Source: a virus
Lineage: Duplodnaviria; Heunggongvirae; Uroviricota; Caudoviricetes
Length of the DNA stretch: 12,954 nt
Strand: one strand, 5' to 3'
IMG/VR virus record: IMGVR_UViG_2778261154_000015
Coordinates: 1-12,954 of that record
Shown: positions 3,861 to 11,623 of the stretch, piece by piece
Layout: every line of letters begins with the position of its first letter
Position numbering within the stretch: position 1 is the stretch's first letter
Translations under genes and position numbers: made by a program
The notes under the pieces: model-generated
Databases searched by the model: none
What the model saw: the letters and a program-made list of their open reading frames with translations, nothing else
What the model was told of the DNA's origin: nothing

Positions 3861-3953
3861 TATTGATAAACCTCATCACAGATTTAAGGGTGAACAAATC
3901 TCTGCCATTGCTGACATATAAGAATGAAACTGGATATTTATTACGGTGCTGTT

Positions 3954-4887: not shown

Positions 4888-5121
4888 ATGTTAAAATCAA
4901 CTCTTATTGCTAAATGCCTTTATCAAAATCGCATGGTAAGCAGCATTTCAATAGGCGAGTCTGCAGTTAAAAGTATTTTCGAAGAGTACTTTCCCGGGCA
5001 TGATTTTAATAAATGGAATACCAAATTACCGCCAGCAGTTTCAACGCGTATTCTGAAAGCAACTGAAAGAGCAAGTACAATTCGCGTTAACTATTTCATT
5101 AAAGATTTGTGGGATCTTTGA
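4888..5121 (+). CDS. Hypothetical protein (77 aa), unrecognised; part of an AT-rich insert
   Basis: ATG preceded by a strong Shine-Dalgarno (cAGGAGGgtgaATG). AT-rich coding sequence on the opposite strand to the surrounding operon. Its 3' end overlaps the 3' end of the convergent 135-aa ORF by 23 nt. No family recognised, so coding status is uncertain. Confidence 0.45.
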   Translation: MLKSTLIAKCLYQNRMVSSISIGESAVKSIFEEYFPGHDFNKWNTKLPPAVSTRILKATERASTIRVNYFIKDLWDL

Positions 5122-5506
5122 TATCCACAGAGCCTAAAGTATGTGCATATGGATGTGCTATTGTGCGCCCTCGCAGATTTGCATCATTTTCTAAATTCAC
5201 TGAACGAAACAGGGCATCAACAAGGCTCTGTACAATGCAAAGGCAATCGAAGACTGTCGCTGTTTCTGTTTTGATTGATGAAAGAACATGGCCATTCACG
5301 CAAACAGAAATTACCCGTTCATTAACATCGCTTTCCTGCTTTTGATTATCAGAACCATATAGCCCAGAAAAAGCATTGCGCACATTACGAACCATATTAT
5401 CGATGGTTTCTTTTTTGGTGTATGCCGGGTCAATTTTCACCAGACTATCACCGAGAGTCGTTGCAGCAATTGTCTGGATTTCTTTTGGTAAATCTTTAAA
5501 TTCCAT
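5099..5506 (-). CDS. Hypothetical protein (135 aa), unrecognised; extra gene within the dicB operon
   Basis: ATG at 5506 preceded by GAGG at about 6 nt, and only 22 nt downstream of the ydfC stop on the same strand. No hydrophobic segments and no motif I recognise. Visibly AT-richer than neighbouring genes. Confidence 0.6.
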   Translation of the reverse strand: MEFKDLPKEIQTIAATTLGDSLVKIDPAYTKKETIDNMVRNVRNAFSGLYGSDNQKQESDVNERVISVCVNGHVLSSIKTETATVFDCLCIVQSLVDALFRSVNLENDANLRGRTIAHPYAHTLGSVDIKDPTNL

Positions 5507-5905: not shown

Positions 5906-6061
5906 TCACTCACCTGAGTTTCTTTCCAGCCAGCGACGGGCACCATTTTCGGTTTTAAACGTTTTGCTTTTGGTATACGTCATGGCGGTAAACGTTCCAT
6001 CCTGGTTAGGGAACACGCCGCACACCAGAGATTCGTTGTTGCCAAGATCGATAGTATCCAT
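5906..6061 (-). CDS. ydfA: YdfA-like small protein (51 aa)
   Basis: 51-aa frame from the internal ATG (MDTIDLGNNESLVCGVFPNQDGTFTAMTYTKSKTFKTENGARRWLERNSGE) preceded by GAGG at 6 nt. It is the first ORF downstream of the putative dicB-operon promoter, and its length matches ydfA. Confidence 0.65.
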   Translation of the reverse strand: MDTIDLGNNESLVCGVFPNQDGTFTAMTYTKSKTFKTENGARRWLERNSGE

Positions 6062-6129
6062 GCTGACCTCATTTCCCCTTAACGCCGGGTGGCGGAACTG
6101 TTTGCTGAGAGCACCGTGCGGTGTCTTGA

Positions 6130-6175
6130 TGGATGTTAATTTAGTTTTCTCATGGTAATTGGTCAAGTATTTTTG
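6130..6175 (-). promoter_or_regulatory. Candidate sigma70 promoter for the dicB operon (dicBp-like)
   Basis: On the minus strand: TTGACC (plus coordinates 6161-6166), a 17-nt spacer, then TAAATT (6138-6143). This lies about 80 nt upstream of ydfA, in the 190-bp gap between dicA and ydfA. Promoter call made by eye only. Confidence 0.4.
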
Positions 6176-6252
6176 ATAAGAAATCTCAATATTTAATGCA
6201 AAACAAAGCCAATACATTGAAATGTAAGGCTTTAAAATTTGTGAAGGGGGGG

Positions 6253-6660
6253 TTATTGATGTTTGTTACGTTTACGAGCTTCTAGTAGCTCGGTGAATAG
6301 GCGATTAAAATTCTCAACGCGGGCACGGAGTTCGCTGATTTGTGCTTGCTGCTCTGATTTTGGAAGTGCGCGATACAATCGCAACATCTCCAACTCATCT
6401 TCCGATAGGTCTAAGGCGCTGTTGAGTGCAACTGGGGGATCTGGTGTTTTATCCTCGTCACCAAACAGTATCCAGGTTGGTGAACATTGCAATACCTCAG
6501 CTAGGCGATGCAAATTTTGCCCGCGCGGGGCTGTATGGTCGCTTTCCCATAGTGAAATTGATGAGCCAGATACGCCAGCAGCTTTGCTTAAATCGTTTTG
6601 ACTTAAACCAACCTGTTTGCGTCTTTCTCTAATTCGTTGACCTAAAGTTTTCTCGTTCAT
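6253..6660 (-). CDS. dicA: HTH XRE-family repressor, DicA-like (P22 C2 / lambda cI functional analogue)
   Basis: 135-aa ORF with an N-terminal HTH (LSQNDLSKAAGVSGSSISLWE) and the conserved LQCSPTWILFGDEDK segment. Same length as K-12 DicA. Divergent from a Cro-like gene, with a short operator-bearing intergenic region between them. Confidence 0.85.
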   Translation of the reverse strand: MNEKTLGQRIRERRKQVGLSQNDLSKAAGVSGSSISLWESDHTAPRGQNLHRLAEVLQCSPTWILFGDEDKTPDPPVALNSALDLSEDELEMLRLYRALPKSEQQAQISELRARVENFNRLFTELLEARKRNKHQ

Positions 6661-6737
6661 ATTTAGATATCTTAATAACTCTTGACTTGAGATTCCTTGA
6701 ATGATTACTATTAAGAAAACTCAACTTTGGAGGGGCG
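6661..6737. promoter_or_regulatory. Divergent dicA/dicC promoter-operator region
   Basis: 77-bp gap between divergent repressor and Cro-like genes. Plus strand has TTGACT (6682-6687), an 18-nt spacer, TACTAT (6706-6711), then GGAGG before the dicC ATG. An inverted pair CTTAATA (6671-6677) / TATTAAG (6709-6715) flanks the promoter. Confidence 0.5.
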
Positions 6738-11410: not shown

Positions 11411-11623
11411 ATGTTAAATACACAGAAAACCATTAATGCGGAAAAATATAACGAGTGGGTGAGGAAATTCTCTGAGCAGATTTTTAAAATTACTGGCGAC
11501 GAGAATGCGGCAAAAAATGAATTAGAGCCGTGGACACCTGAAGGAGTCGACCCAAATTATTGCTGGTGGGATGTTGATCCAGTTGATGCTGCAAATGAAG
11601 CTATGAGTTATCACAACGATTAA
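11411..11623 (+). CDS. Hypothetical small protein (70 aa)
   Basis: ATG preceded by GGAGG at 8 nt. Acidic, Trp-rich C-terminal half. No family recognised. Confidence 0.7.
   Translation: MLNTQKTINAEKYNEWVRKFSEQIFKITGDENAAKNELEPWTPEGVDPNYCWWDVDPVDAANEAMSYHND

Follow-up and report, generated by a model that had tools for sequence, protein, structure and literature searches.

A short motif shared by two promoter regions is one half of a 14-bp dyad repeated five times around a dicA-like repressor gene

In the virus sequence IMGVR_UViG_2778261154_000015 (12,954 nt; the whole stretch is referred to as the window), a dicA-like repressor gene is flanked by two promoter regions that share a 10-nt motif. 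The question raised by this locus is whether the motif is part of an operator for the repressor, as had been suggested when it was described as a possible half-operator (the original prediction). The motif is one half of a dyad that occurs in five copies around the dicA-like gene and has the form TTGAG-N4-CTCAA, 14 bp long or 18 bp in P22 numbering. Three copies are located between the divergent dicA-like and dicC/cro-like genes, and two at the promoter of the ydfA-dicF-dicB operon.

Locus, shared motif and repeated dyad

Protein domains were assigned with Pfam, RNA elements with Rfam, and promoters were predicted by consensus scan. The locus comprised the following features:

6253-6660, minus strand: dicA-like repressor gene (135 aa), whose N-terminal HTH_3 domain is related to that of P22 C2
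6738-6965, plus strand: dicC, a regulator of the P22_Cro family (Pfam P22_Cro), 75 aa, helix VDPSAVSQW, followed by ydaT
5906-6061, minus strand: ydfA (DUF1391, Pfam), first gene of the putatively repressed operon, just past the dicA stop codon
4502-4553, minus strand: full-length DicF sRNA gene (RF00039, 76.7 bits), downstream of ydfA-ydfB-ydfC
6199-6241, minus strand: hairpin followed by GUUUUG (-12 kcal/mol, z -3.45), just past the dicA stop codon
6682-6711, plus strand: predicted dicC (cro-like) promoter, with -35 TTGACT (6682-6687), 18-nt spacer and -10 TACTAT (6706-6711)
6138-6166, minus strand: predicted ydfA-dicF-dicB operon promoter (dicBp equivalent), with -35 TTGACC (6166-6161), 17-nt spacer and -10 TAAATT (6143-6138)

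HTH_3 covers residues 10-64 of the DicA-like protein, and no other domain was found by Pfam. Peptidase_S24, which would indicate a CI-type autocleavage domain, gave no match in the 135-aa repressor at E ≤ 0.01. Homologous loci have annotations for the genes ydfB and ydfC. Because DicF lies downstream of them, the operon under the promoter at ydfA includes a cell-division-inhibiting sRNA. An ORF of 135 aa (5099-5506, minus strand) is located between ydfC and DicF. In the Rfam scan DicF was the sole match, and no RNA element was found in 6062-6737. The hairpin at 6199-6241 is likely a dicA terminator, which would insulate the operon promoter from dicA; the consensus terminator scan gave no call at this position.

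Both promoters lie roughly where they had been placed before, and the positions of both 10-mers were confirmed (TTGAGATTCC at 6687-6696, plus strand; TTGAGATTTC at 6180-6189, minus strand). The motif had been described as adjacent to or overlapping the -35 hexamers. This applies to the dicC promoter, where the motif and the -35 have one base in common, the last of the hexamer, but not to the ydfA promoter, where 13 nt separate the motif from the -35 downstream of it. One further copy, TTGAGTTTTC with a single mismatch (6715-6724, minus strand), had been overlooked.

Taken alone, the 10-mer is at chance level, as the original prediction had cautioned. With up to one mismatch it matched four times in the whole window versus 2.4 expected, and 41 of 200 shuffles reached that number. 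Some 10-mer (≤1 mismatch) was common to both intergenic regions in 54% of shuffles. Near-identical 10-mer pairs (≤1 mismatch) between the two intergenic regions numbered 11 versus 1.1 expected from shuffles, 12-mer pairs 3 versus 0.09 and 13-mer pairs 1 versus 0.03, and this excess hinted at a repeated element.

The repeated unit was recognized by aligning the window with close relatives, K-12-type loci and further heteroimmune loci. Dyads were then scanned for with up to two mismatches to TTGAG-N4-CTCAA. Five sites were obtained in the two regions (listed without strand):

6711-6724: O1, TTAAGAAAACTCAA, adjoining dicC
6687-6700: O2, TTGAGATTCCTTGA, in the -35/-10 spacer of the dicC promoter
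6662-6675: O3, TTTAGATATCTTAA, 1 nt from the dicA start codon
6140-6153: Ob1, TTTAGTTTTCTCAT, overlapping the -10 and the spacer of the ydfA/dicB-operon promoter
6176-6189: Ob2, ATAAGAAATCTCAA, with its centre some 52 nt upstream of the start site predicted for ydfA

Four of the five carry two mismatches. Of the two motif copies originally noted, one belongs to O2, the middle site, and the other to Ob2, the upstream one. O1 is the best of the dyads; in most relatives it reads TTGAGAAAACTCAA and is then perfect. It covers the final base of the dicC -10 hexamer together with the predicted start site, at the position that Oc has in K-12. Within O3, the minus strand contains a -10-like TAAGAT (6674-6669), which precedes the dicA ATG by 8 nt. 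The operators between dicA and dicC are spaced by 24-25 bp. Ob1 and Ob2 are 36 bp apart and bracket the -35 of the ydfA-dicF-dicB promoter. The dyad centres (AAAA, ATTC, ATAT, TTTT and AAAT) are A/T-rich.

In local dinucleotide shuffles, 0.15 dyads were expected in the 267 intergenic nt that hold these five, and none of 20,000 shuffles reached four; P values are partly post hoc, as the consensus was derived with the relatives already in view. Across the whole window seven dyads were found versus 7.5 expected, and the significance lies in the clustering alone. The two matches outside the intergenic regions (3863-3876 and 11603-11616) were discarded as no more than chance. The first of them, TTGATAAACCTCAT (2 mismatches), is located 3 nt upstream of an 813-aa exonuclease-like ORF (3860-1419, minus strand) and is compatible with chance. 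A 9-mer, AGTTTTCTC, present at 6143 and 6646, was likewise rejected: its second copy falls into dicA codons 3-5 and has four mismatches as a dyad, which is chance level. At the operon promoter, for which three operators have been stated in K-12 (PMC10448788), the scan gave two dyads and no third was recognizable by eye in 6154-6175 and 6190-6213. In the literature library searched, no paper contained the operator strings, and the paper on O157 DicC maps no sites.

Conservation and covariation with the DNA-reading helices

For conservation analysis, 83 loci of the same immunity type, representing 58 haplotypes, were aligned. In this alignment the five dyads form invariant islands between hypervariable columns. 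Minor alleles of at least 10% occurred in 0 of 70 operator columns versus 27 of 75 other promoter-region columns (Fisher 1e-9), and the contrast persisted when the columns of promoter hexamers and Shine-Dalgarno region were left out. For O2, O3 and Ob1, conservation is in part confounded, as promoter elements overlap these sites. O3 is invariant in all 83 loci.

The 10-mer of O2 consists of the left arm and spacer of its dyad, and that of Ob2 of the right arm and spacer. As such, the 10-mer is not conserved at Ob2 in homologous dicA loci: the version that creates TTGAGATTTC was present only in the window and one relative (L081) among the 83 loci, and 70 of the 83 read TTGAGTTTTC here, their entire Ob2 being ATGAGAAAACTCAA. 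The ATT(Y)C portion, previously included in the operator motif, is central spacer and at Ob2 specific to the lineage of the window and L081. Across relatives only TTGAG and its dyad partner are conserved, and the 10-mer was rejected as the unit. The half-operator idea is sustained in that the motif belongs to predicted repressor operators with TTGAG as the half-site. It falls short in that the unit is a 14-bp dyad with five copies instead of two, three of which had been missed.

Of 5,426 complete E. coli genomes, 786-793 (~14.5%) contained the immunity type, which was also present, at ~90% DNA identity, in the phages mEp460_ev081 and HannyBb. DicA of HannyBb is identical in sequence to that of the window and DicA of mEp460_ev081 is 96% identical, and both phages carry the same five dyads. 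mEp460_ev081 is reported to be a functional temperate phage with homologues of dicA, dicC, dicB, dicF and rem (PMC10448788). A repressor 96% identical to that of the window was also carried by the contigs L010 and L011, which are labelled as Bacillota and Veillonella parvula MAGs. These occurrences are most likely due to contamination during binning of the MAGs.

For comparison between immunity types, a de novo search for dyads of the form h-N4-rc(h) was run separately on each of 18 loci. The 14-mers started at -64/-66, -40 and -15/-16 relative to the dicA ATG, with two more at the operon promoter. In the dicA-dicC intergenic region, offsets varied by no more than 2 nt between types with a clear dyad. 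The half-site changed with the recognition helix of DicA. ISLWES was associated with TTGAG or TTAAG (window, mEp460, Buttiauxella L012, Citrobacter L013 and Superficieibacter L014), (V/I)SQWER with TTAGN-N4-NCTAA (K-12 type, L006 and L017-L020), and VFKWE with ATAAC-N4-GTTAT (L023 and L024). Cross-counts of dyads of the wrong type were about zero. The DicC helix covaries as well, being (D/E)(P/R)SAVSQW versus IRLASLYSW and VRLASVAAW. The -35 hexamers between the dyads read TTGAC(T/C) in nearly all types examined, with the exception of L012 (TGGACA) and of several loci with TTGCC at the operon promoter. The -35 of dicC is kept across immunity types, and the layout of the operon promoter in K-12-type loci is the same as in the window.

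The immunity-specific cassette extends from about 6132 to about 6823, and matches between the window and K-12-type loci or PPompW phages are confined to the sequence left of about 6131 and right of about 6824. The exchanged block holds dicA, the first ~29 codons of dicC and the two promoter regions' dyads, so that all five operators and both DNA-binding domains are enclosed.

The K-12 Qin locus has the same order (ydfA-ydfB-ydfC-dicF..., promoter, dicA, divergent dicC-ydaT), with promoter hexamers and operator offsets positioned as in the window. K-12 DicA is likewise 135 aa long and overall 55% identical to the window repressor, the C-terminal half being conserved. The two loci differ in the half-site (TTGAG in the window versus TTAGT in K-12), in DicA helix 3 (SGSSISLWES versus SHVSVSQWER) and in the DicC helix (VDPSAVSQW versus IRLASLYSW). 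Dyads of TTAGT, TTAGA or TTAGG were absent from the two regions of the window. Based on these half-site and helix differences, the window and K-12 loci are predicted to be heteroimmune. In K-12, the operator Oc is a 20-nt inverted repeat, TTGTTAGTCATAACTAACAA, which adjoins dicC at the position of O1; DicA binds this repeat in vivo, and binding is lost upon a single A-to-C change (PMC3441716). A different consensus of the K-12 operators had been named as grounds for abandoning the half-operator idea, and Oc formally has one. The mismatch does not refute the idea, however, because the recognition helix differs and K-12-type dyads occupy the same positions.

The predicted immunity switch

The sites exist, are non-random and selectively conserved, lie on the predicted promoters and change with both helices. 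Very probably, the window contains the immunity switch of a Qin-like lambdoid prophage, in which the DicA-like repressor and the Cro-like DicC would read the five dyads. The locus has a short HTH_3 repressor with a divergent P22_Cro gene, a ydfA-ydfB-ydfC-dicF-(dicB) operon past the dicA stop codon on the dicA strand, and repeated dyads (3 + 2) at K-12-type offsets. By its sequence it is classed as a heteroimmune member of the known DicA/DicC lambdoid module, an assignment that is useful for annotation and not surprising.

For the operation of this switch we infer actual binding, cooperativity and an order of affinities, as well as a dicA mRNA without a leader. Each of the two proteins, DicA-like and DicC, would bind the dyads as a dimer, in analogy to P22 C2 and Cro. 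Repressor on O1 (-10 and start site) and O2 (spacer) would occlude RNA polymerase and block dicC and the rightward genes. Occupancy of O3, which overlaps the -10-like element of dicA, would shut off dicA, and DicC would probably act there first, as Cro does at lambda OR3. The dicA -10 would be situated inside O3, as at lambda PRM/OR3. The dicA ATG is without a Shine-Dalgarno sequence, which, together with TAAGAT 8 nt upstream, suggests a leaderless dicA mRNA; in other types, the equivalents of O3 contain TAGAAT or TAGCAT at the same distance from the ATG. At the operon promoter, repressor on Ob1 over the -10 and spacer would silence the cell-division inhibitors of the ydfA-dicF-dicB operon, and Ob2, 36 bp upstream, may stabilize this binding cooperatively.

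Operator binding by the repressor and repression of dicCp and dicBp are known for K-12 (PMC3441716, PMC10448788, PMC11430063). A summary of the K-12 locus likens it to lambda, the operators at dicCp corresponding to those at PR and the ones at dicBp to those at PL. K-12 DicA has no Ala-Gly bond of the kind that RecA-mediated cleavage requires, and relief comes from the antirepressor Rem (PMC10448788). Om and Oa, the other predicted (weaker) sites of K-12, were not bound by DicA when each site was on its own (PMC3441716), and O2 and O3 may therefore be weak, dependent on cooperativity or specific for DicC. In ChIP-seq with K-12 DicC, the strongest signal came from two sites that flank dicA on either side, and the palindromic motif was TT(A/C/T)G...C(G/A/T)AA (PMC11430063). 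DicA binding at Oc only and DicC peaks at both regions would suit real operators with mainly one reader (DicC alone, or DicA alone at O1 and Ob1) or with a further factor, as would the observation that O3 is identical or nearly so where DicA is 65-75% identical to that of the window and the DicC helices are nearly the same. We regard this as improbable, given that DicA helix 3 and the DicC helix both covary with the half-site and that lambdoid switches have operators common to both proteins.

There is little probability that the dyads are promoter architecture (a -35-like TTGA(G/C)A, an UP-element or spacer composition) read by RNA polymerase and not by a repressor. While the -35 TTGAC[T/C] stays constant, the dyads vary with the helices of repressor and Cro, which argues against promoter elements. 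TTGAGA does match TTGACA at five of six positions, and overlap with promoter elements could by itself conserve O2, O3 and Ob1; O1 and Ob2, however, are outside the hexamers and yet conserved amid hypervariable flanks, and dyad symmetry with a fixed 4-bp centre is no property of promoters. Coincidence, i.e. two A/T-rich promoter regions sharing a functionless 10-mer, would account for the chance-level count of the 10-mer, for the 54% of shuffles with such a word and for the confinement of the exact 10-mer at Ob2 to the window and L081, but is extremely unlikely in view of the clustering that no shuffle matched, the agreement of the sites with the conservation islands and the type-specific dyads at identical positions in heteroimmune relatives.

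For the predicted DicA/DicC switch, the closest solved relative of the repressor is the N-terminal domain of P22 C2 (E 2e-15; 1adr, 2r1j, 3jxb). The P22 operator core is TTAAG-N4-CTTAA, one base from TTGAG. In helix 3, the window repressor differs from P22 C2 at residues 32, 33, 34, 37 and 40, and E44 and N46 of P22 C2 are A44 and R46 in the window; these differences are compatible with a related but distinct specificity. Of the 18-bp P22 site, positions 2-7 and 12-17 are contacted by the repressor; the central four bases (8-11) are non-contacted and read indirectly, with a preference for A/T (PMC4267663). The window dyads share this 5-4-5 geometry and the A/T-rich centre, a match by sequence only. 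P22 C2 is unlike the window repressor, for which Pfam finds the HTH only.

Likeness to lambda OR/OL with CI and Cro is found in the divergent genes, the three operators about 24 bp apart that overlap both promoters, the second operator set at the leftward early promoter and a repressor mRNA that is probably without a leader. Unlike in lambda, the operator sequence is unrelated and two leftward sites are detectable, 36 bp apart. Unlike CI, the window repressor is short and without a CI-like C-terminal domain.

The analysis yields an operator consensus, TTGAG-N4-CTCAA, and five mapped sites, both testable, for an immunity type carried by roughly every seventh complete E. coli genome and by mEp460_ev081, a functional temperate phage. 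The operators would control dicF and dicB and with them inhibition of host cell division, with an effect on phage susceptibility. The table of helices versus half-sites amounts to a natural code of specificity, on a small scale, for domains like those of P22 C2 and P22 Cro, and could guide predictions of cross-immunity between Qin-like prophages. The general picture of how such switches work is left unchanged.

Rare operator alleles of the window

In mEp460_ev081, HannyBb and the E. coli prophage copies, the half-site of O1 is TTGAG and Ob2 contains ATGAGAAAA, whereas the window has TTAAG and ATAAGAAAT. A G>A change is found at the same half-site position in both of these operators, the two best of the window (O1 TTGAG to TTAAG at 6713; Ob2 ATGAG to ATAAG at 6178), and the Ob2 spacer of the window carries an A>T change at 6184. 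Among 82 relatives, the rare alleles at 6178, 6184 and 6713 were shared only with L081. The haplotype was found in none of 5,426 complete E. coli genomes, whose best matches over the two promoter regions were 95.0% and 97.9%. L001, in which the operators are of the majority form, has a repressor protein identical to the window's.

Three of 11 rare alleles are in operators, which make up 70 of 674 columns (binomial P ~0.1, not significant). It is unlikely, though conceivable, that these alleles are not neutral drift but were selected because they retune the affinity of the operators, for example towards leakier control of dicC and dicBF, or that they mark a first step, taken by the operators, towards a P22-like TTAAG specificity.

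L081 (IMGVR_UViG_2526164619_000007) is the closest relative of the window and differs from it at 10 of 674 nt. Damage is seen in its promoter hexamers (dicC -35 TTGATC and -10 TGCTTT; ydfA -35 TTGGCC), and it may be a decaying copy of the window's lineage.
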